The notes under the pieces were generated by a model. That model searched no databases and had not been told where the DNA came from. It saw nothing but the letters and a program-made list of their open reading frames with translations. This document shows positions 327 to 50,841 of a DNA stretch of 54,943 bases, piece by piece (within the stretch, counting starts at the first letter, position 1; every line of letters begins with the position of its first letter). Position numbers and translations under genes: made by a program. The DNA comes from Flavobacteriaceae bacterium (GTDB lineage: Bacteria > Bacteroidota > Bacteroidia > Flavobacteriales > Weeksellaceae), in the NCBI GenBank assembly GCA_031276535.1, contig JAISMV010000143.1:1-54943 (forward strand). The letters run 5' to 3'.

Positions 327-1676
327 GTGTCAAAATTTACTAAGAATACACAAAGCATAATAGATGAAATAATTGACCAATACATGTTTGCAGACGAAAC
401 AAAACGTCCATGGATTATTGGTTTTAGTGGTGGAAAAGATTCTACCGTAATGCTTCAATTAGTTTGGGAAGCATTGAAGCAGGTTAAAGATTTTCACGGA
501 ATTGTAGGTAGAGATATTTATGTGGTTTGTAATGATACGATGGTTGAAAATCCCGTTATAGTAGAATATGTTTATCGAGTTTTGAATAAGATTGAGCAAG
601 CTGCAAGAGACCAAGATTTACCAATTTATGTAAGAAAAACTATTCCAAGATTGGAAGATTCTTTTTGGGTGAACTTGATTGGAAAAGGTTACCCTGCACC
701 AAACAATGCTTTTCGTTGGTGTACGGAACGATTGAAAATAAAACCAACTTCCCGCTTCATTTTAGAACAACTTGATGAATTTGGAGAAGCTGTTATTTTA
801 ATTGGAACTCGTTCGGCGGAGAGTGCTAATCGTGCCAAATCAATGAAAAAACACGCCATAAAAGGGAAAAGATTAACCAAACATCCTGTGCAACCCAATA
901 CGTATATGTATGCACCTATTAGGTATTTAATGTTAGAGGAGGTTTGGTATATTATCAATACAATGCCATCGCCTTGGGGCGCAAGTAACGAAGAATTATT
1001 CCAAATCTATGTAGATGCAAGTGCAGATGATTACGAGTGTCCTGCGGTTGTTACGGATAAAGAACATAAATCTTGTGGACAAAGCCGATTTGGTTGTTGG
1101 GTTTGTACAGTCGTAAAACAAGATAAATCAATGTCTGCATTGATTGATAATGGTTTGACTTGGCTCAAACCTCTTTTGCAATTAAGAAATGAATTAGCAG
1201 AACAACGGAATATTATCAAAAATCGTATGCCACAGCGTAGAAACGGAACTAATGCAGTAAACGGGATGGGACCTTATTATCCGTGGTATCGTGCTTCTGT
1301 ATTGAAACGTTTGTTAAAAGCTCAAAAGGAAATACAAAAGGAAAAACCGCATATTGAGTTAATAACTAATCAGGAATTGGTTGCGATTCAGACGATTTGG
1401 TATCGTGATTTTGTATTTAACCAAAAAGTTTCGGAAATTTACCGCAATGCTTATAAATCAGATTTGGATATGAGAGACCAAAACGAAAAAAAGGAAAAAG
1501 AATTGGAATTGCTTAAAAAATCTTGCAAAAAGAATCCACAAGATTTTGAGCTAATTCAGGAACTTTTGACCTTACAGAAAAACAAGTCGCTTTTGAATCG
1601 CAAACGTGGATTAAAAGAGGATATTGAAACACGAATAGAAGAATATCTAAAAAAAGAGCAAAAAGATGTTCATTAA
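327..1676 (+). CDS. dndC: DNA phosphorothioation sulfurtransferase DndC (PAPS reductase family)
   Basis: PP-loop GFSGGKDS, DTMVENP, GYPAP..FRWCTERLKI, and the Cys cluster SCGQSRFGCWVC. GTG start; overlaps dndD by 11 bp. Confidence 0.93.
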   Translation: MSKFTKNTQSIIDEIIDQYMFADETKRPWIIGFSGGKDSTVMLQLVWEALKQVKDFHGIVGRDIYVVCNDTMVENPVIVEYVYRVLNKIEQAARDQDLPIYVRKTIPRLEDSFWVNLIGKGYPAPNNAFRWCTERLKIKPTSRFILEQLDEFGEAVILIGTRSAESANRAKSMKKHAIKGKRLTKHPVQPNTYMYAPIRYLMLEEVWYIINTMPSPWGASNEELFQIYVDASADDYECPAVVTDKEHKSCGQSRFGCWVCTVVKQDKSMSALIDNGLTWLKPLLQLRNELAEQRNIIKNRMPQRRNGTNAVNGMGPYYPWYRASVLKRLLKAQKEIQKEKPHIELITNQELVAIQTIWYRDFVFNQKVSEIYRNAYKSDLDMRDQNEKKEKELELLKKSCKKNPQDFELIQELLTLQKNKSLLNRKRGLKEDIETRIEEYLKKEQKDVH

Positions 1677-3783
1677 AGATATAGAGTTAAATAACTTCCG
1701 AATATATAAAGGAAAGATTAAAATTGATCTTTTGCCTGAAAACAACAAAAATATAGTTGTTGTGAGTGGGAAAAACGGTTTTGGAAAAACTACATTCCTA
1801 ATGTCATTGGTTTGGTGTCTGTATGGTAAACAGATGGAAAAAGTCGATGAACTTTATCAGAAAGAGATTGCAGATAAGGGAGGATATGGAAAATATATTG
1901 GAAACAGCCTAAATAGACTAGCAAGAGCTAAGGGAGAAACAAGATTTTCTGTTTCCGTTACTTTTAGAGATGTGAAAATTCCTGATATAACTTGTAATGA
2001 AATCAAAATTACGAGAAGTTATGATATAAAAACAAGCACAAGCGACAAAGTAGAAGTTTTGATAGATGGTTTTCAAAACGAACTTATTCAGGATCTTACA
2101 ACAGAGGGGAAACAAGATGGAGAAGAAATCTTTATCCGTGATTTTATTTTGCCTATTGAAATTGCAAAGTTCTTTTTCTTTGACGCTGAAAAAATTGTTT
2201 CCCTTGCCGAAATCAACTCGTCTGAACAAAGAAGATTATTAAGCAAAGCATATACGGAAGTTTTAGGGATCAAAAAATATGAAGATTTAAAAGACCAACT
2301 TGAAAATATTCAAGACGAATACAGGAAGAAATCAGCGAAACCACAGGAACGTCAAGAGTTTAACGAAATAGAAACCGCAATAAAAAATAAACAGATTGCG
2401 ATTGACGACATAGAAGTTCAAGTCCAAGAGTTGAATCAGGAGAAAGTCGAGAAACAGAGTGAATCCAACGAAATTCAGATGAAGTTGATCCAAGAAGGGA
2501 ATATGATGACCTTGGAGCAACTCAATGATTTGAAAATAGAGGAAACAAAATTAAACGATAAAATCAATAATCTTCAAAATGATTTGAAAGACTTATTTGA
2601 TTTAATTCCTTTCGGATTAGCAGGAGAAACTTTAATGGATATCTCAAACCAATTAGAAAGTGAGAAGAATTATAAGGAAAGTAAATACAAACAGGAAGAT
2701 GTAGGAGAAAAAACTAAATGCATTCTTGATGATATTGAGGTAGAGAAGAAGAAGTTTAATGGGATAATTGGGATAGAAATTCGTGATTTTTATGAGACAC
2801 AAATTAAAAATCTCATCAAAAAATACTTCTTTTCTGATATTCCGGAACTTCCTGCACATTTTGAAGCATTACATGATTTTTCAGATGTTGAGACAAATGA
2901 ATTAAATACTTTAATCAATAATTTGAAACATACCTTTAGAGATGTTTTCACAAGATTGAATGATGAGTATTTAAGGTCTAAAAATGACCTTGATTCTATC
3001 AGAAGAAAAATTAGGTCTGCGGAAAAAGATGCTGAAGATGAATATATCGCAAACCTAAGAGCAGATAAAAAACGATTAGACGATAGAGTATTTAGCATTG
3101 AAAAGGACATCTATGATTTAGGAGAACGGACAGGAGCGTTTAAAAATGAGATTAAAACTCTAAAGCAAAGACAAGAGGAGTTAAGAAAGAAAATAGACGA
3201 TTCGAGACGTTATTCTGAAAAGGATAAGAAAACACAGGATTTGATTTCTAATTTAAAAGAGTTTATCAAAGATTTCAAAGTTACGACCAAGAAAAAACTT
3301 GAAGAAAATATTTTGAACGAACTCAATATACTGATGCATAAAAAAGGTTTTATCAAAAAAGTTGTCGTAGATATAAATCAGGCAGGAGACGATGTGGATA
3401 TTAACCTTTTCAACTCCCGAAATGAGAAAATTGATAAAGGTTCATTATCAATGGGAGAGCGTCAAATGTATGCTTCCGCTCTACTCAAAGCGTTGGTTGA
3501 CGAATCGGATATTGAATTTCCTGTGTTCATAGATTCACCGATGCAAAAATTTGACAAAGACCACGCAGAAAACGTAATCAAAGAATTTTATCCAAATGTT
3601 TCCAAGCAAGTGGTTTTATTTCCGCTAATCCATAAGGAATTGACTGAGAGTGAATTTGAATTACTGAAATCGAACATCAGTAAATCGTACATCATTCACA
3701 ATATTAGTACAGATGCTTCCGAATTTGTTGAATCGGTTCCAGAAAACTTAATCAAAACATACAACGAACTTTATGCAAATTAA
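1666..3783 (+). CDS. dndD: DNA sulfur modification protein DndD (SMC/ABC-type ATPase)
   Basis: Walker A GKNGFGKTT, FFFFDAEKI, long coiled coil, signature LSMGERQ, Walker B VFIDSP; lies directly after dndC. Confidence 0.92.
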   Translation: MFIKDIELNNFRIYKGKIKIDLLPENNKNIVVVSGKNGFGKTTFLMSLVWCLYGKQMEKVDELYQKEIADKGGYGKYIGNSLNRLARAKGETRFSVSVTFRDVKIPDITCNEIKITRSYDIKTSTSDKVEVLIDGFQNELIQDLTTEGKQDGEEIFIRDFILPIEIAKFFFFDAEKIVSLAEINSSEQRRLLSKAYTEVLGIKKYEDLKDQLENIQDEYRKKSAKPQERQEFNEIETAIKNKQIAIDDIEVQVQELNQEKVEKQSESNEIQMKLIQEGNMMTLEQLNDLKIEETKLNDKINNLQNDLKDLFDLIPFGLAGETLMDISNQLESEKNYKESKYKQEDVGEKTKCILDDIEVEKKKFNGIIGIEIRDFYETQIKNLIKKYFFSDIPELPAHFEALHDFSDVETNELNTLINNLKHTFRDVFTRLNDEYLRSKNDLDSIRRKIRSAEKDAEDEYIANLRADKKRLDDRVFSIEKDIYDLGERTGAFKNEIKTLKQRQEELRKKIDDSRRYSEKDKKTQDLISNLKEFIKDFKVTTKKKLEENILNELNILMHKKGFIKKVVVDINQAGDDVDINLFNSRNEKIDKGSLSMGERQMYASALLKALVDESDIEFPVFIDSPMQKFDKDHAENVIKEFYPNVSKQVVLFPLIHKELTESEFELLKSNISKSYIIHNISTDASEFVESVPENLIKTYNELYAN

Positions 3784-5350
3784 TATAAGAACATCGGAAG
3801 CCAACCAGGAAATCGTTAGAAAACTAACGGCTAAATTACCTGTTGGAACAAAAGAAAACGTAATTGCAAGAATTGCATTAGGTTATTCTTTGCAAAACAG
3901 TAAGCGTTTTGCTACTTCCGAATTTAATATTTATGATTCCAAAGGAAAGGAATATAAAGACCATATTTTGTTTGATGCGAAATACAGAGATTTTTACATT
4001 GCTTTGATTTGCCAACATTATGGTATTTATAAAACTAATGAGAATATTCCGAAATACATTAAACTACATATTGACCACGGTTTGGAGTTAATGGATAATT
4101 TGTTTTCCAACAATAATAATTATACTTTTTTAGATTTTCTGACAGAACATTTAGATAAAGGAATTTCTATGTTGGATACAGTTAAAGTAAGTTTAGATGC
4201 TGTAAAAAATAACAGTCAGAAAATTGAAAAATCTTATTTTGCAGAGCCAATTAAAATTTTGATAGGAAACAAATTAGAGGATGAAAATGAAGAAATTATA
4301 TTGAACTTCAACGATATAAAGTTATACAATAATAACCATATTGCTGTAGCAGGAAATACTGGTACAGGAAAAACACAATTTGCATTGCAACTTTTACGGG
4401 AGATTTCGGAAAAATCAAATCATCACGTAAGTTTCATCTACTTAGATTTTAAAGGATTAAAAGATGATGATTTGATAGAAATGCAACCATTCTTTGATGA
4501 AACTAAGGCACAATTTATTAATGCTCCAAATACACCTTTCCCTATAAATCCGCTTTCATTTATTGATAGTATCAATGACATCAATAAACAAATGGGAATT
4601 GATAAGTTTGTAGATATTATTTGTAAATACTCAAATATTGGGGTCAAACAACGGGGTAAATTGAGAGAAGCCACCAATGAAGCATTTATCAATAAAAAAC
4701 CAAATGAATATCCAACTTTTGAAGAAATCAATAATCAGTTGTTAGAAATCGTAGGAGACAAACGAGACACGCTAACCGAAATTATTGATGAGTTAAGTAG
4801 ATATAATGTGTTTCAGGAAGATAAGAAGATTAAGAATTTCCTAAATCAAAACATTTACTTGTCTTTGTCAGGAGATTTATCTAACTCTGTACGTTTTACA
4901 TCATTGTTTCTAATAATAAACTACATTTATAATGTATTTATGAATATGGACAATACGCCTACTGATAATGGTTGTCGCGCTATGCGTTATGTACTTTTAA
5001 TTGATGAAGCTCACGTAATCTTCAAAGAAAGAAAGTATCAAGACATCTTGGAAAAAATATTACGTGAAATCCGCTCCAAAGGAGTTTCCGTTGTATTGTT
5101 GTCTCAAGGAATTGAAGAATTTAACCAACCGACTTTTGATTTTTCAAGTATGTGTGAAATTTCATTCTTGTTAAGCATCAAGGACAAAAATAACACAAAA
5201 GCAATCAGTAAGTTTTTAGGTTTTAGTGAAAAAGATAGTACAAAGGCATACAGAAGTCTTGAAAAGATTGAAAAAGGTCAAGCAATTTCTAATATAAAAG
5301 AATTTCCAAAAGGAGAGTTGTTTGAAATTAAGCAATTTTATAATAGTTAA
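3773..5350 (+). CDS. dndE: DndE domain fused to a HerA/FtsK-like P-loop ATPase/helicase (DndEi-like)
   Basis: N-terminal ~140 aa is DndE-like (IRTSEANQEIV..NVIARIALGYSL..HIDHGLE). The C-terminal domain has Walker A GNTGTGKT, Walker B LLIDEAH and LREIRSKGVSVVLLSQ. Confidence 0.82.
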   Translation: MQINIRTSEANQEIVRKLTAKLPVGTKENVIARIALGYSLQNSKRFATSEFNIYDSKGKEYKDHILFDAKYRDFYIALICQHYGIYKTNENIPKYIKLHIDHGLELMDNLFSNNNNYTFLDFLTEHLDKGISMLDTVKVSLDAVKNNSQKIEKSYFAEPIKILIGNKLEDENEEIILNFNDIKLYNNNHIAVAGNTGTGKTQFALQLLREISEKSNHHVSFIYLDFKGLKDDDLIEMQPFFDETKAQFINAPNTPFPINPLSFIDSINDINKQMGIDKFVDIICKYSNIGVKQRGKLREATNEAFINKKPNEYPTFEEINNQLLEIVGDKRDTLTEIIDELSRYNVFQEDKKIKNFLNQNIYLSLSGDLSNSVRFTSLFLIINYIYNVFMNMDNTPTDNGCRAMRYVLLIDEAHVIFKERKYQDILEKILREIRSKGVSVVLLSQGIEEFNQPTFDFSSMCEISFLLSIKDKNNTKAISKFLGFSEKDSTKAYRSLEKIEKGQAISNIKEFPKGELFEIKQFYNS

Positions 5351-5356
5351 TTTCTT

Positions 5357-6703
5357 ATGAGTAATACAATACAGGGTAGCCCTACGAAAACATTTTTTAT
5401 TGAAATGATTACAAGAGACATTTCAATAAAAGATGCAATTTTGGATTTATTAGATAATTCCATTGATGGAGCAAACAAATTAAATCCTCACAGTTATAAT
5501 GGTTTATTCATTGATATTACTATTAATGAAAATGAGTTTATAGTTAGAGATAACTGTGGAGGGTTTTCATTAGAAACAGCACAAAAGTATGCTTTTAGGT
5601 TTGGAAGACCTGATGACACACCGCCTACAGAGGGATCAATTGGTCGCTTTGGAATAGGTATGAAGAGAGCATTATTTAAAATCGGACAAGATTTTGAGGT
5701 AAAAACTAAAAGTGCTAATGACCATTTTCAAATAAATGTCAATGTAACTGACTGGAAAGAGAGGAAGAAAACAATTACTGATAGTAAAGGAGAGCAATTT
5801 GAGGTTGAAGACTGGGATTTTGAGTATTTGGAAATAACTGATGAAACTAATAATTTAGAACAAAACGGAACTTATATAAAGGTTTGTAATTTACATAAGG
5901 AGGTATCGGAAATTTTTAAAGATGATGAATTTTTAAATGACCTGAAAGATGAAATAGAACGACTTCTAAATTTCAGCATAGAGAAAGGTATTAAAATAAC
6001 TTTAAATGGTTCAGAATTGCAAAAAAAGGATATTGTTATCTTTAATGACACCTCTAAGCCATATTTTTATGAATTAGAATACAATGGTGTAAGAATAAGA
6101 GTGGTTGCAGGATTAAGTTTTGTTGGTAACCCACGTGCCTCTGGTTGGTATATTTACTGCAATGACAGATTAGTGTTGGAAGCAGATAAGACAGAAATAA
6201 CTTTATGGGGGACTGGAAATATTCCAAGATGGCACGTAGATTATGTAATGTTCAAAGGAATAGTATTTTTTGATTCTTACGAAACTATAAAGTTGCCACT
6301 AACGACTACAAAAAAAGGAATAGATGCTACTTCGGAAACTTACAATAAAGCAAAATTCTTTATGAGGGAAGGAATGAATTTGGTTCTAGGTTTTTTAAAA
6401 GATGTAAGAAGAAAATTAGGGAGTGAGGCTAATGGGTATCGTACCATGTTAGGGGAGCAGGAAGACAAAATTTCGGTTATAAATTTAAAAACAGCCGAAA
6501 TTGAAGAAGGGAGAAAATTTATTTATCCAGAAATTAACTTAGATGTTGTCGCTTCTAAAAATGAAGAGGTTAGGATTGCTTTTACAGCATCAAAAAAACT
6601 TGCTGACAAATTACGCTCAGATACGGATTCAAAGACATATAAAGAACTAGGAGAATATCTTTTGAGATATTATTTAAAAATGGAAGAAGTAGAGTATGAA
6701 TAG
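5357..6703 (+). CDS. MORC-like GHKL ATPase (HATPase_c + S5 domain) with a possible C-terminal ribbon-helix-helix
   Basis: GHKL boxes DLLDNSIDG, DNCGG, GRFGIGMK and GTYIKV; MORC S5-type motif GWYIYCNDRLV; starts 6 bp after the dndE stop. Confidence 0.8.
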   Translation: MSNTIQGSPTKTFFIEMITRDISIKDAILDLLDNSIDGANKLNPHSYNGLFIDITINENEFIVRDNCGGFSLETAQKYAFRFGRPDDTPPTEGSIGRFGIGMKRALFKIGQDFEVKTKSANDHFQINVNVTDWKERKKTITDSKGEQFEVEDWDFEYLEITDETNNLEQNGTYIKVCNLHKEVSEIFKDDEFLNDLKDEIERLLNFSIEKGIKITLNGSELQKKDIVIFNDTSKPYFYELEYNGVRIRVVAGLSFVGNPRASGWYIYCNDRLVLEADKTEITLWGTGNIPRWHVDYVMFKGIVFFDSYETIKLPLTTTKKGIDATSETYNKAKFFMREGMNLVLGFLKDVRRKLGSEANGYRTMLGEQEDKISVINLKTAEIEEGRKFIYPEINLDVVASKNEEVRIAFTASKKLADKLRSDTDSKTYKELGEYLLRYYLKMEEVEYE

Positions 6704-7634
6704 TCCTAAGTTTTTAAATTATGAAACACGTCCCTTAAAGTTTACTGAAAGGAAAATGCTTCTTTCTGCATTTAATAGGATTATAAATCATTATCAAAAT
6801 AATTATCAGTATATTGGATTTGGAGGAATATCCTTTACTGATTTCAAATTATTTCACAAAGAATTGCATATTAACGAAATGTGTTCTATTGAAGGAGGAA
6901 ATTTTAGTATTGAGAAATTACAGTTTAATTGCCCTTATTCATTTATTAATATTTACCAGAATAATTCTACTAATATACTATCTGAATTAGAATTAGATAA
7001 AAGAACCATAGTATGGCTGGATTACGATAGTGTTCTGGATAACTATTTTTTTGATGATATAAGTGTTTTATTCAGTAAACTTCCTGTTGGTAGTATTTAC
7101 TTGATGACTTGTAATCGTGAATTAAAATTGTCTGAAACAAGAGAAGAATATACAATAGAACAATTTAAAGAAAAGTTTGGTAATAATATTCCCTACAATT
7201 TAAGAAATTCTGATTTTATAGGAGGGAATAACTATAAAACTATTAGAATACTTTTGAATCTTCAAATAAAAAAAACATTAAGCGAGAGATTGAACTCAAC
7301 CTTTGAGGATTTAGAGTTTAATCAGCTTTTTAATATTTTGTATCAAGAGAATAGAGGAGCTAAAATGTTTACCTATGGAGGGTTAATTGCAGAAAAAGGG
7401 AGTAAAGTTAAAGATGATATACTATTAGACGATTTTGAATTTATCTCTTTGGAAGAGACTCCTTATAAATTAGAAATTCCTAATTTCACAAGAAGAGAAA
7501 TTGATTTAGTTGATAATCATCTTTCAACCAAAGAGATAGAATTAATTAATAAAAACATCATTACTCAGTCTGAATTGGATAAGTATAAAAGAACATATAA
7601 ATATCTGCCGAACTTTTTTGATGTTAGGTTGTAA
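6696..7634 (+). CDS. Putative class I SAM-dependent methyltransferase-fold protein
   Basis: Gly-rich motif I-like YIGFGGISFTDF, acidic end of beta2 (MCSIE), IVWLDYD at beta4; 8-bp overlap with the GHKL gene. Confidence 0.6.
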   Translation: MNSPKFLNYETRPLKFTERKMLLSAFNRIINHYQNNYQYIGFGGISFTDFKLFHKELHINEMCSIEGGNFSIEKLQFNCPYSFINIYQNNSTNILSELELDKRTIVWLDYDSVLDNYFFDDISVLFSKLPVGSIYLMTCNRELKLSETREEYTIEQFKEKFGNNIPYNLRNSDFIGGNNYKTIRILLNLQIKKTLSERLNSTFEDLEFNQLFNILYQENRGAKMFTYGGLIAEKGSKVKDDILLDDFEFISLEETPYKLEIPNFTRREIDLVDNHLSTKEIELINKNIITQSELDKYKRTYKYLPNFFDVRL

Positions 7635-7891: not shown

Positions 7892-7892
7892 G

Positions 7893-7974
7893 TACGGATG
7901 AAGGGAATCGAACCCCCACGCCTCACGGCACTAGATCCTAAGTCTAGCGTGTCTACCAGTTCCACCACATCCGC
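7893..7974 (-). tRNA. tRNA-Leu(TAG)
   Basis: Reverse complement GCGGATGTGGTGGAACTGGTAGACACGCTAGACTTAGGATCTAGTGCCGTGAGGCGTGGGGGTTCGATTCCCTTCATCCGTA; anticodon arm CTAGA-CTTAGGA-TCTAG, long variable arm, TTCGA T-loop. Confidence 0.97.
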
Positions 7975-47778: not shown

Positions 47779-50700
47779 ATGAAGAAGTTCTTTCCCCTAT
47801 TGGCACTACTATTGAGTCAGGTTCAGGCAGAATCCCAAATAACCGGGAAGAATCCCGGGGGTGTATCCGGAGCAGTATTATGGATGAAGACAAATGCTGT
47901 TACCAAGGATTTGAACGGTAATTACCGATGGCAGGATTATTCCGGTGATTCCGCACGATTAACCTACTACAATACAAACAATGAATATCAGGCATCCAAA
48001 AAAACAAACTTTAGCAGGATGTACAATTTCCAGCCGGGACTGCTGCTTACCAGTCAGTCGTTAAGCAAGGAAATAGAAATTAAGAGCGGCAATTTATCCA
48101 CTATGACCCTCATAGGCGTTACAGGAGAACACACTCTGGCAGGAGAACACTTCAGCCGGGCGGATTACCTGATGACGATCAACGGGGTAAAAGGTAAAGG
48201 TTTCGTATTAGACAAGGACAAAATAATCCATAGTACAGAGAGCAGTCGCGGCGTATTCGATTACGGAAAGGACGAAGGCTACGATCTGATGTACCATCCC
48301 GGATTGAGTCCCGAAGAAAATCTGACCGGATACAAAGAAAGAACCTTGCGCAGTTTCACCTACTACCGCAGCAACCGTCCGGTAACCGGCATATGGGGAG
48401 AACGACGCAGATCACACCTGTCGTTGGGCGAAAAATTTTATTCCACCAACCAACACAACAATTCCAGCTACGATACCGGGTTATTCAATCCGAACAATAT
48501 CTTTAACGGTTATCTTCCCGAGTTGATCATCTACGATCGGATATTAAGTCCTCTGGAGCGGATAAAAGCAGAAAGCTATCTGGCGTTGAAGTATGGTTTC
48601 ATGCTGGAAAGTTCGTATTTAGGCAGCGAAGGTCAACTGTTGTGGGATCCTTATCAGGAAAAAGTATACAACCATCGGGTAACCGCAATATACCGGGACG
48701 ACAAGAGCGGACTGTATCAAAACCGATCAGGCACTTCCTATGAAGAAGCCCCCCATTTCAGTTACAGTCCGGAAGGCGAGAGCCACGACAATCAGGACAA
48801 TTACGGCTTGTCCAACCGCAATAAGCTGCTGGTAATAGAAAGATTTCCATGCGCTCCTCTCCACGACCGGGAGTATCTGATCTGGGGAGATAATGATCAG
48901 AGTATAAAAACAGTTTTCCGGGAGGATTATCTGGGGATGAAGATAATGGAGAGAAACTGGCTGGTAAAAACCAATATGGGAGGAAAATTCCCTGTTTTCG
49001 GGCAAATGCAGTGGGAGGTATCCTCTAACCTCACAGCGGAAAAGGAAGGATATAAGCTAAATATAAAGAAATCAGCGACAACAGAGACTTTACCCGGAAT
49101 TCTATCAAGTGCAGTCCCTTTACCCGGATACGAGGGACATATATCATTTACTTTATCCAACCCTTTGGGATTGATAATTGTGAAGTTTGGAACCAAAAGC
49201 GTTCCGGAGCAAAACGGGAGCAATGACTATGGAATATTCATTAATGAAAAAGGAGAAGTATACCCTATTGTACGGGGATATCCTCAGTGGAACAACAGGT
49301 GGAATGTTATAGTAAAATCCGGAGACAGGATCAGGATCAACAAAACGAAAGATGCTATTATAGTTAGCTCCAATGGCTGGGCTTTGCCACAGACAGGACA
49401 GAGTTTACCTCAAATATTTATCGATCCGCAGGATATAGAAAAAGATTTTTATGTGAATTTAGGCATCTATCAATGGAATCAGGATACGGCGGTTAAAGAT
49501 TTTCGGACAGGAGGTTTTATTGATACGGGAAACCGGATAGAGCTATCATATATTGATACCCGGGCTACTGATTTTACAAATTATGCTTCCAACGGTCAGG
49601 CATACATGCTGGTAGACCGTTCCGGAACCGGGGAATTTAAGAAAGAAGATACCGAGATGTATGTTTCCGATGAATACGATGCCGCCCGAAAGAAAATAGT
49701 ATTTAATAATGTATTCTTTGATACGGATGCCAATGATAGGGATGTATTTACTTTCGGATACAGGGAAACCAATCTGATAGCTAACATAGAGAAGACCTCT
49801 CCCGGCTGTAACAATGGAGATCCGCAGCAGGACGGATCAATAACCGTACAGATAGTAAAAGGCGATCCCGGTTTCGAATATCAGTTGATAAATAACGCGA
49901 CTTCTCAGGTAGAAAAGGAAGGAGTATTTTTTACGAAAGAACTGAAAATAGAAAACCTCTCCTCAGGAGAATATACCTTTAAACTTAAAGAGATTGGCGG
50001 ATTTCATATAGCATCGGACGACACATCGAACGAGCACAAGTCCATAAGCCACCAGAGCATAGACTGGGACAGAGGAGGTTTATTTGAGACCACCATAAAA
50101 AGCACAAACCAGAATTTTCAGATGGGACTGGTTCCACAGTCTAATCCTTCGGATGCAGCCAACATTTTACAGTATGGATTTGAAATTAAACAAGGTCAGA
50201 TCTACATAATAACCAATCAGGAGAAAAGTACTGTTCCGCAGTCGGGCGTGTACATAAAAGAAGGAGATAAAGTACAGATATATAAAAATTATAATGAAAA
50301 ATCAGTTCCTTATAGAGTTGATTACAAGATAAACGGAGTTATCTTTTATACCCAGCAAAACCTGACGGGGTATCGGTTTTTCATGTTAAAGAACCTCATG
50401 CCGCAAGACACCATATACAACATAAGGAACACCGATGGAAGTAACTGGTTTGGTCCAAAGAACTGGAACTATCATAACAGTCATTCGGAACCTCAGGCAC
50501 AGAATTTATCAGAAACCGGCATAAGTCACACCCTGAGTCTGTTGTCGGAATGTAATAAATCCACACCGGAGATTCAGTCTTTCGCAGAGCAGAACAACGT
50601 GATCTACTATTATCAAGACTATAACGACAAATCAAAAATAACGGCAAAAGTGACCTTAAAAAGTTCCTCACCGGTGAGTCTGGCAGTATTTGATCTTTCG

Positions 50701-50841
50701 GGCGCACTGCTTCACAACCAGTATAGTCAGGAAAGTAAAAAAGAACATACGTTGGAAATAACCGGATTACCTCCGGGAGTATATCTGTCGAAAATATTTT
50801 CGGCTGAAGGAGAATATACCCAAAAAATAATCATACAGTAA
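47779..50841 (+). CDS. Large secreted protein with T9SS type A C-terminal domain
   Basis: Signal peptide; PGGVSGAVLW and ESYLALKYG motifs; two internal lectin-like beta-sandwich repeats; C-terminal VFDLSG..LPPGVYL..TQKIIIQ. Confidence 0.75.
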   Translation: MKKFFPLLALLLSQVQAESQITGKNPGGVSGAVLWMKTNAVTKDLNGNYRWQDYSGDSARLTYYNTNNEYQASKKTNFSRMYNFQPGLLLTSQSLSKEIEIKSGNLSTMTLIGVTGEHTLAGEHFSRADYLMTINGVKGKGFVLDKDKIIHSTESSRGVFDYGKDEGYDLMYHPGLSPEENLTGYKERTLRSFTYYRSNRPVTGIWGERRRSHLSLGEKFYSTNQHNNSSYDTGLFNPNNIFNGYLPELIIYDRILSPLERIKAESYLALKYGFMLESSYLGSEGQLLWDPYQEKVYNHRVTAIYRDDKSGLYQNRSGTSYEEAPHFSYSPEGESHDNQDNYGLSNRNKLLVIERFPCAPLHDREYLIWGDNDQSIKTVFREDYLGMKIMERNWLVKTNMGGKFPVFGQMQWEVSSNLTAEKEGYKLNIKKSATTETLPGILSSAVPLPGYEGHISFTLSNPLGLIIVKFGTKSVPEQNGSNDYGIFINEKGEVYPIVRGYPQWNNRWNVIVKSGDRIRINKTKDAIIVSSNGWALPQTGQSLPQIFIDPQDIEKDFYVNLGIYQWNQDTAVKDFRTGGFIDTGNRIELSYIDTRATDFTNYASNGQAYMLVDRSGTGEFKKEDTEMYVSDEYDAARKKIVFNNVFFDTDANDRDVFTFGYRETNLIANIEKTSPGCNNGDPQQDGSITVQIVKGDPGFEYQLINNATSQVEKEGVFFTKELKIENLSSGEYTFKLKEIGGFHIASDDTSNEHKSISHQSIDWDRGGLFETTIKSTNQNFQMGLVPQSNPSDAANILQYGFEIKQGQIYIITNQEKSTVPQSGVYIKEGDKVQIYKNYNEKSVPYRVDYKINGVIFYTQQNLTGYRFFMLKNLMPQDTIYNIRNTDGSNWFGPKNWNYHNSHSEPQAQNLSETGISHTLSLLSECNKSTPEIQSFAEQNNVIYYYQDYNDKSKITAKVTLKSSSPVSLAVFDLSGALLHNQYSQESKKEHTLEITGLPPGVYLSKIFSAEGEYTQKIIIQ

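Follow-up and report, generated by a model that had tools for sequence, protein, structure and literature searches.

What do the two genes that follow dndC, dndD, and dndE in a phosphorothioation operon of a Flavobacteriaceae bacterium do, and is phosphorothioate (PT) modification their proper partner? The operon occupies positions 327-7634 of the forward strand of contig JAISMV010000143.1 (assembly GCA_031276535.1); the whole stretch of DNA analyzed, 54,943 nt in length, is referred to below as the window. Gene 4 of the operon encodes a GHKL-type ATPase and gene 5 a methyltransferase-fold protein of family PF20553. Our mapping of these two genes (hereafter, the pair) indicates that a mobile two-gene module, able to partner with either base methylation or phosphorothioation, describes them better than a PT-specific invention does. 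We put at about 50% the probability that the pair is the attacking (restriction) arm of a mark-gated, nuclease-free restriction system, in which DndCDE writes the protective self-mark. The operon is composed as follows:

327..1676, forward strand: dndC, phosphorothioation sulfurtransferase (PP-loop), recognized by TIGR03183, PF01507, and PADLOC DndC.
1666..3783, forward strand: dndD, coiled-coil ABC ATPase, recognized by TIGR03185 and the PADLOC PbeC/DndD models.
3773..5350, forward strand: dndE (residues 5-111) fused to a HerA/FtsK-type ATPase related to the DndH C-terminus, recognized by PF08870, HerA_C, and PADLOC DndH.
5357..6703, forward strand: gene 4, a GHKL+S5 ATPase, MORC-like, by PF13589, structure model, fold match, and conservation.
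6563..6691, forward strand: C-terminal strand-helix-helix of gene 4 (about residues 403-445), a predicted dimerization or DNA-binding element, by conservation and model.
6696..7634, forward strand: gene 5, PF20553 (Methyltransf_35), a class I S-adenosylmethionine (SAM)-dependent methyltransferase fold with a C-terminal helical part, by Pfam and model.

All five genes are co-oriented, and the junctions given in the preliminary description of this locus, namely an 11-bp overlap, a second 11-bp overlap, a 6-bp gap, and an 8-bp overlap, were borne out exactly. The identical five-gene order recurs in many other genomes, so this order reflects more than chance. The mapping covers 126 loci; it excludes five duplicates (L033, L051, L052, L075, and L078), copies from the window itself, shorter extracts of loci that were fetched again, and dnd loci in which the pair is missing. 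The sampling favors close relatives (34 loci came from a pattern-limited scan, and the best 80 of 379 were taken), and the loci are not independent, many being near-copies that fall into 76 clusters at 90% and 42 at 70% over all loci. Genes 4 and 5 are adjacent in 122 of the 124 loci that contain both, the exceptions being an IS66-split copy and a start-call artefact; two further loci end before gene 5. On Sinorhizobium pSymA (L038:5698-10810), IS66 interrupts the methyltransferase-fold gene after about residue 45. The tree distances of the ATPase and the methyltransferase correlate at 0.97 overall and at 0.91 within the dnd-linked group, and the two genes share a single history.

Loci with an ATPase at least 40% identical to that of the window form a near clade of 110 loci. 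In 87 of them, dndC, dndD, or dndE lies within 10 kb; in another 22, the contig ends within 5.6 kb upstream, and 14 of these 22 show Pbe/CxC genes, which sit between dnd and the pair in complete loci. The one orphan (L023), in a complete genome without dndC, has an ATPase lacking residues 1-51, including motif I. Among near loci with sufficient flank, 87 of 88 are dnd-linked, which upholds the proposed coupling of genes 4 and 5 to dndCDE. This link spans six gene orders, with the pair (i) after dndE, (ii) after dndE-HerA, (iii) after Pbe genes, (iv) before dndC, (v) convergent with dndCDE, or (vi) divergent from dndCDE. The PT and Dcm marks are mutually exclusive in this clade, Dcm being found at 0 of the 110 loci. 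Among 37 representative dnd loci, PbeA/CxC genes accompany the pair in 11, and one Clostridium locus (described below) carries the pair directly after dndFGH; the pair thus does not simply stand in place of dndFGH. Nucleases in the same 37 loci comprise Mrr (11), PbeA-like (11), and HNH (3) proteins, with overlaps, and 18 loci show none of those screened.

Within the dnd-linked group, the distances of the pair do not follow those of DndD (r 0.06, p 0.19), whereas the pair correlates with DndC at 0.42 and DndC with DndD at 0.48. The fused or unfused state of DndE requires 10 changes on the tree of the pair (shuffled mean 13.0, with 32 of 500 shuffles as low), compared with 1 on that of DndD and 2 on that of DndC; because of these 10 changes, the pair appears to hop among dnd subtypes, by about 10 hops, and yet it repeatedly lands beside dnd. 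The association seems, on these trees, to have been actively kept through the six gene orders and the subtype hops. Among 400 Bacteroidota genomes drawn evenly in a single sample (with dndC matches counted at E 1e-40), PF20553 was present in 7, dndC in 16, and both in 2, adjacent in each case (0.28 expected, p 0.028); of the other five PF20553 genomes, two have it with DISARM, two with Dcm, and one with an N6/N4 methylase. That just 7 of 400 genomes in the phylum carry the pair, with dndC in 2 of those 7, would suit an independent system that lands in defense islands with no functional tie to dnd, as would the position of the operon in a variable region beside a tRNA and the sharing of neighbors among kin. 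Such a chance companion is highly improbable, and the linkage data have already largely refuted it: the association persists over six gene orders and some 10 hops, alternates exclusively with Dcm, and is missing only from an orphan whose ATPase is shortened.

Outside the near clade, the partner changes. The distant forms comprise 24 loci (16 from the main mapping and 8 new viral loci), of which 18 lie beside Dcm, 3 lie inside DISARM with Dcm, 1 lies beside an N6/N4 methylase, and 2 are PT-linked, so that 22 of the 24 adjoin a base methylase and have no dnd gene. This distribution contradicts the view of the pair as a PT-specific family, and it argues against the suggested methylation at PT sites as its core function. 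On viral contigs, Dcm is beside the pair in 12 of 12 distinct ones. The partner Dcms retain the PCQ and ENV motifs, with 7 of 8 tested scoring best on one PADLOC model, and the distant loci are mostly without a nuclease seen. The settings are those of defense genes, namely the E. coli P2 hotspot, the Pf phage accessory region, and the interior of DISARM. Of the two PT-linked distant loci, the first is a Clostridium pair after dndFGH, with a dndBCDEA-like cluster on another contig, and the second is a Halorubrum pair convergent with dnd-pbe. In the Clostridium locus, the methyltransferase-fold gene (L032:10001-11278), which comes after dndFGH and before a KAP NTPase, encodes 426 aa and is partly duplicated internally, with two stretches of PF20553; the representatives P0268, P0271, and P0273 have lengths similar to this protein. 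Surveys beyond Bacteroidota were thin: the pair was present in 1 of 300 further genomes of the Clostridium phylum (Dcm, the pair, and Vsr) and in 0 of 150 of the Halorubrum phylum, and an E. coli search with one prophage pair as the query gave no match.

A 24-row IQ-TREE tree, with its root placed by assumption at the DISARM/P2 group, gathers 11 PT-linked rows in a starred clade (99/97) surrounded by methylase-linked forms. The original partner was likely a cytosine-C5 methylase, which the lineage studied here swapped for the sulfur mark. The Halorubrum PT-linked row falls in a starred Dcm group, and the starred branches force two changes. We do not, however, claim two independent PT recruitments, as a single PT clade was not rejected by the approximately unbiased (AU) test (p 0.093) despite these forced changes.

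The structure model of gene 4 (predicted local distance difference test [pLDDT] score 84) shows a GHKL domain followed by S5, and the protein matches PF13589 (E 8e-14). Its best fold matches by VIA are tied, namely MORC3 (Z 19.5; 294 residues aligned, root-mean-square deviation 4.2), GRP94 (19.0), and SMCHD1 (19.0), and Foldseek ranks Hsp90s first. The earlier designation as a MORC ATPase therefore stands as regards GHKL-then-S5 architecture and ATP-binding motifs, but MORC is not separated from GRP94 or SMCHD1, and Foldseek favors Hsp90s; "MORC-like" is a fair label for the modeled protein. Near and distant forms alike retain the ATP-binding motifs and the TTKKG loop. GHKL enzymes usually have a catalytic glutamate four residues before the motif-I asparagine; this canonical residue is not present in the gene 4 family, where Asp30, four residues before Asn34, is an aspartate in all near and distant forms. 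The C-terminal strand-helix-helix is likewise conserved across near and distant forms, with two helices in the model, and resembles a ribbon-helix-helix by pattern, in line with its predicted role in dimerization or DNA binding. A ribbon-helix-helix identity as such was not supported, there being no meaningful Pfam match, no profile signal versus DndE, and in the Atlas only a weak match to the VapB antitoxin (template modeling [TM] score 0.53). In PADLOC 2.0, whose library version dates from 2023, gene 4 scores weakly on MzaB (E 7e-6, 25 bits versus a cut-off of 850) and on nothing else, gene 5 matches no model, and six distant pair proteins gave no match at 1e-5.

Gene 5 matches PF20553 over its full length (299 bits), and its model (pLDDT 84), in agreement with fold searches, is that of a class I SAM-dependent methyltransferase to which a helical part is added at the C-terminus. 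It displays, as modeled, the class I features, namely a Rossmann seven-stranded fold, a GxG motif I, and an acidic residue after strand 2. SAM binding is likely, because the motif I glycines (Gly41 and Gly43), Glu66, the WLDY stretch (Trp107-Tyr110), and a basic patch (Arg12, Lys15, and Arg19) are conserved family-wide, as is Asp49. Fold matches tie across small-molecule, protein, and RNA methyltransferases (O-, N-, and C-; Z 13.9 to 11.4), so that the database label "O-methyltransferase" is not supported, other substrates fitting equally. Trm1 is among the few proteins that align over nearly the whole of gene 5 (Z 13.1-13.2, residues 8-307; Atlas TM 0.57); however, an assignment to Trm1 or TcmP was not carried by hhalign, which gave no signal with small profiles of 5 and 3 sequences (one Trm1 row being mis-picked), and the Trm1 Z-score is tied with those of unrelated enzymes. 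A NCBIfam scan of 55 family members returned nothing relevant; the family counts 1851 representatives at 50% clustering. Beyond PF20553, the closest look-alikes of gene 5 in the Atlas are methyltransferase-fold clusters that have no annotation and come mostly from phages (scores 0.90-0.91, TM 0.56-0.57), together with the PP_RS20740 family (PF28273, 38% of that cluster). Of 60 relatives, 3 carry genes of the TcmP family (TIGR04474), which served for comparison (L156-L158; genomes G009, G011, and G012).

These features bear on the notion of a second modification layer, in which gene 5 would add a methyl mark to host DNA, the ATPase would loop DNA to spread or couple the mark, and other genes would restrict. 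The conserved SAM-binding motifs, the constant presence of a writer beside the pair, and the Mrr-family nucleases in 11 of 37 representative loci all fit this notion, and MORC-type ATPases have been proposed to loop DNA in restriction-modification operons (PMC2292703, in the passages covered). However, gene 5 has neither the (D/N/S)PP(Y/F/W) motif nor the PC catalytic motif of DNA amino- and C5-methylases after strand 4, where WLDY stands instead, and its top fold matches contain no characterized DNA methylase. Moreover, the writers (Dcm, N6/N4 methylase, and DndCDE) are unrelated, making a shared helper interface unlikely, and a defense hotspot would probably offer little benefit to a prophage that had a second writer but lacked an effector. 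We regard a helper of this kind as quite unlikely.

What the unrelated writers have in common is their product, marked DNA. The pair apparently depends on a DNA mark, whether sulfur or methyl, because near pairs lie beside dnd in 87 of 88 cases and distant pairs beside a methylase in 22 of 24, while the mark seems not to need the pair, since 9 of 11 dndCD(E) loci lack it (these 11 being the dndCD(E) loci among the 16 dndC matches of the 400-genome draw). A one-way, mark-agnostic dependence would be the pattern expected of a restriction arm, and the pair is likely, as far as its neighborhoods can tell, a new anti-phage arm that would spare DNA with either kind of self-mark. That DndCDE, with a cysteine desulfurase, installs phosphorothioates is established for Dnd systems. 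Building on the observed gene identities, folds, linkage, and tree, we infer complex formation, mark sensing, toxicity, anti-phage activity, and a substrate along the following lines: (i) DndCDE and host IscS would place phosphorothioates on host DNA; (ii) the ATPase would dimerize and clamp or scan DNA using ATP; (iii) host DNA would leave the complex inactive because of the mark; and (iv) incoming DNA without the mark would be attacked by the methyltransferase-fold subunit, which would not cut it but would most likely modify it in a SAM-dependent way or bind it tightly, blocking replication or transcription. The Mrr, HNH, or PbeA nucleases would be optional add-ons. The conserved residues of genes 4 and 5 include no nuclease motif, as had been noted from the first. 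A specific version, in which a MORC-like clamp delivers a SAM enzyme that methylates unmarked DNA (as a replication-blocking lesion or as a tag for adjacent Mrr nucleases) and is re-licensed by 5-methylcytosine or phosphorothioate, would make methylation the weapon rather than the shield; we hold this version to be unlikely.

Several points weigh against the pair being a restriction arm. Neither of its proteins carries a nuclease or known toxic domain, and none of the screened nucleases occurs in 18 of 37 representative dnd loci, so that the way in which an invader would be stopped is not apparent. The lack of tracking with DndD is awkward for a sequence-specific reader, which would be expected to follow the specificity of its writer. 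How one pair reads both a backbone sulfur and a base methyl is unexplained, and few positions are fixed specifically in the dnd-linked group (only 12 in the ATPase and 4 in the methyltransferase). The fold matches of gene 5 tie across methyltransferase classes, its top 50 containing no characterized DNA methylase; a single origin of PT linkage is compatible with the AU result; the sampling is biased to close relatives, with many loci being near-copies; and we found no published experiment on any member of the pair family.

Some of these same observations would suit a guard or abortive back-up, in which the pair senses the loss or inhibition of marking (unmarked host DNA, stalled modification complexes, or phage inhibitors) and then arrests the cell, either through methylation of a host molecule (a tRNA or a protein, for instance) or through depletion of SAM. 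A guard would depend on any mark chemistry without co-evolving with DndD, it would be at home in complete systems that already have effectors (DISARM and dnd-Pbe), and the fold matches of gene 5 do include tRNA and protein methyltransferases, with Trm1 aligning over nearly the whole length. However, no other effector to guard was found in the prophage Dcm-plus-pair cassettes or in the bacterium's own genome, and the profile comparison of gene 5 with the small Trm1 and TcmP alignments gave no signal. We consider this guard role, including its arrest route, a minority possibility, and the restriction arm remains our preferred reading.

The dnd genes themselves are well supported. DndC passes TIGR03183 (437 bits, cut-off 290) and PADLOC DndC (E 5e-145) and matches PF01507 and, weakly, PF20306, with a weak Sp-DndD match at its C-terminus. 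DndD scores on PADLOC PbeC models, yet it passes TIGR03185 (273 bits, cut-off 246) and comes after dndC. In gene 3, a DndE part (PF08870, residues 5-111, E 2e-21) is followed by a HerA/FtsK-type ATPase (HerA_C), which matches PADLOC DndH over residues 145-510 (E 2e-25), the sole DndH resemblance in the window. The three genes, in a single operon, form a predicted Dnd modification module, and an unlinked IscS/DndA-like gene (33% to a DndA, E 6e-56) provides a candidate cysteine desulfurase on contig C75. Homologues assign the genome to Bacteroidota. Tblastn searches of the bacterium's own genome (93.5% complete, 152 contigs) with the chosen queries found no DndF, DndG, or DndH (Clostridium queries), PbeA, CxC ATPase, Mrr, HNH, DndB, or Dcm. 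Accordingly, neither a dndF-dndG-dndH restriction set (in the window or in the genome) nor a PbeABCD/CxC set, with a PLD-helicase PbeA and a second ABC ATPase-DndE pair, is found here. GGCC (observed/expected 0.16) and CTAG (0.24) are strongly under-represented in this genome. GGCC avoidance was rejected as a footprint of the system, as congeners without the operon avoid GGCC too (pooled 0.42) and the presence of the pair at a dnd locus makes no difference (medians 0.68 with it and 0.74 without it).

The position behind dndE holds various genes in the loci that lack the pair, namely DndFGH, Mrr, DndB-like genes, a ParB pair, an HSDR_N protein, nothing, or a PD-Lambda-5A-like pair. The dndCDE of the last locus is 88-90% identical to that of the window, whereas loci with the MORC-like pair reach at most 80%; because the closest dndCDE has another partner pair, this slot appears to be exchanged faster than the dnd core. 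In that locus (L064:9843-11901; G208:C4), two overlapping genes follow dndCDE-HerA: the product of one has 367 aa and a PD-Lambda-5A-like N-terminus, and that of the other has 323 aa and matches nothing in Pfam or PADLOC. We regard the two as a candidate for another PT partner. Right behind dndE or dndE-HerA, an unannotated small gene of 155-194 aa and, after it, a gene of the DndB family also recur, at these positions:

L058:10410-12214, small gene and DndB-family gene.
L063:9917-11676, small gene and DndB-family gene.
L005:6792-8608, small gene and DndB-family gene.
L025:14685-16439, small gene and DndB-family gene.

The preliminary description did not recognize the combination as described, which holds in part. 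The DndE-HerA/FtsK fusion was already reported by Rakesh 2024 (PMC10853773), together with Mrr-type (with HARE-HTH), HNH, and HKD-helicase effectors behind dndE. The main text of that paper contains no GHKL, MORC, MutL, Hsp90, or O-methyltransferase term, although its supplement, outside this check, may list such neighborhoods. Compared with the Dnd systems with DndFGH or PbeABCD treated there, as far as its main text goes, the operon shares the dndC, dndD, and dndE core and the DndE-HerA fusion, whereas its effector slot is filled, without any nuclease, by a GHKL ATPase and a methyltransferase-fold protein. Iyer, Abhiman, and Aravind 2008 (PMC2292703) predicted MORC ATPases in restriction-modification operons with mostly cytosine DNA methylases, a minority of them without a helicase. 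Their MORC/paraMORC operons, as set out in the passages covered, resemble the present systems in pairing a GHKL+S5 ATPase with DNA methylases in a predicted restriction-modification role; they differ in that here no superfamily 2 (SF2) helicase or restriction nuclease is obligatory and the fixed partner is PF20553. Those passages show no phosphorothioation linkage, the supplement lying outside this check.

A Dcm version of the pair, unnamed, is listed in the P2 hotspot in Table S5A of Rousset 2022 (PMC9122126), where WP_029401227 and WP_029401228 account for at least 65-69 listings. It consists of the same two genes at about 31% ATPase identity, but with Dcm rather than dndCDE as the partner. 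The main text there lacks HATPase and methylase terms, and both accessions appear in no other supplementary file. A PfAC20 copy was termed an incomplete system with only a cytosine methylase (PMC11878078), Jian 2021 (PMC8569181) has no matching term in the portion covered, and the Tiamat preprint, in the text available, still treats prokaryotic MORC defense as proposed. The window has no drm or mza genes. The pair lies inside DISARM operons (the class with DrmMII) in three loci and outside the DISARM set of PADLOC 2.0, and gene 4 weakly resembles MzaB, with the pair outside the MZA set of the same library. We found no description of a dnd-linked pair in the literature searched, although supplements beyond its reach or newer named systems may contain one. 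The pair is thus uncharacterized, with the DndE-HerA fusion published and the Dcm version listed but unnamed.

Most dnd-bearing genomes lack DndFGH, and the pair, which recurs across Bacteroidota, gut and oral genera among them, offers a concrete candidate partner for their sulfur mark. With only two genes, it would also allow a compact test of whether bacterial MORC ATPases act in restriction-modification, as has long been proposed, and the restriction role, if true, would be the first function for PF20553. Further, the natural swap of Dcm and DndCDE bears on how one effector could accept two chemically unrelated self-marks.

The operon sits just 3' of a tRNA gene:

7892..7974, reverse strand: tRNA-Leu(TAG), by ARAGORN.

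On an overlapping contig (C44), which opens with a repeat present at about 24 places in the assembly, lpdA precedes the operon. A promoter and terminator scan of the operon gave no more than chance, no attachment-site repeat of the tRNA was found in the genome, and a gene 5 homologue was absent from 60 of 60 relatives searched. The tRNA-nuoE linkage is kept in five of five congeners, whereas the genes beyond the tRNA differ and, in the 16 kb fetched from each (L165-L169), include no dnd or pair genes; the operon therefore looks like a lineage-specific acquisition at a variable site. The region 3' of the tRNA, different in each of the five congeners, suggests an integration hotspot. The GC content of the five operon genes is 0.26-0.35 versus 0.384 across the remaining window, where positions 8157-54943 hold housekeeping genes (nuo genes, pyrH, frr, purEK, TonB receptors, and bioB) along with two large unannotated open reading frames, at 47779-50841 and from 50871 to the end.

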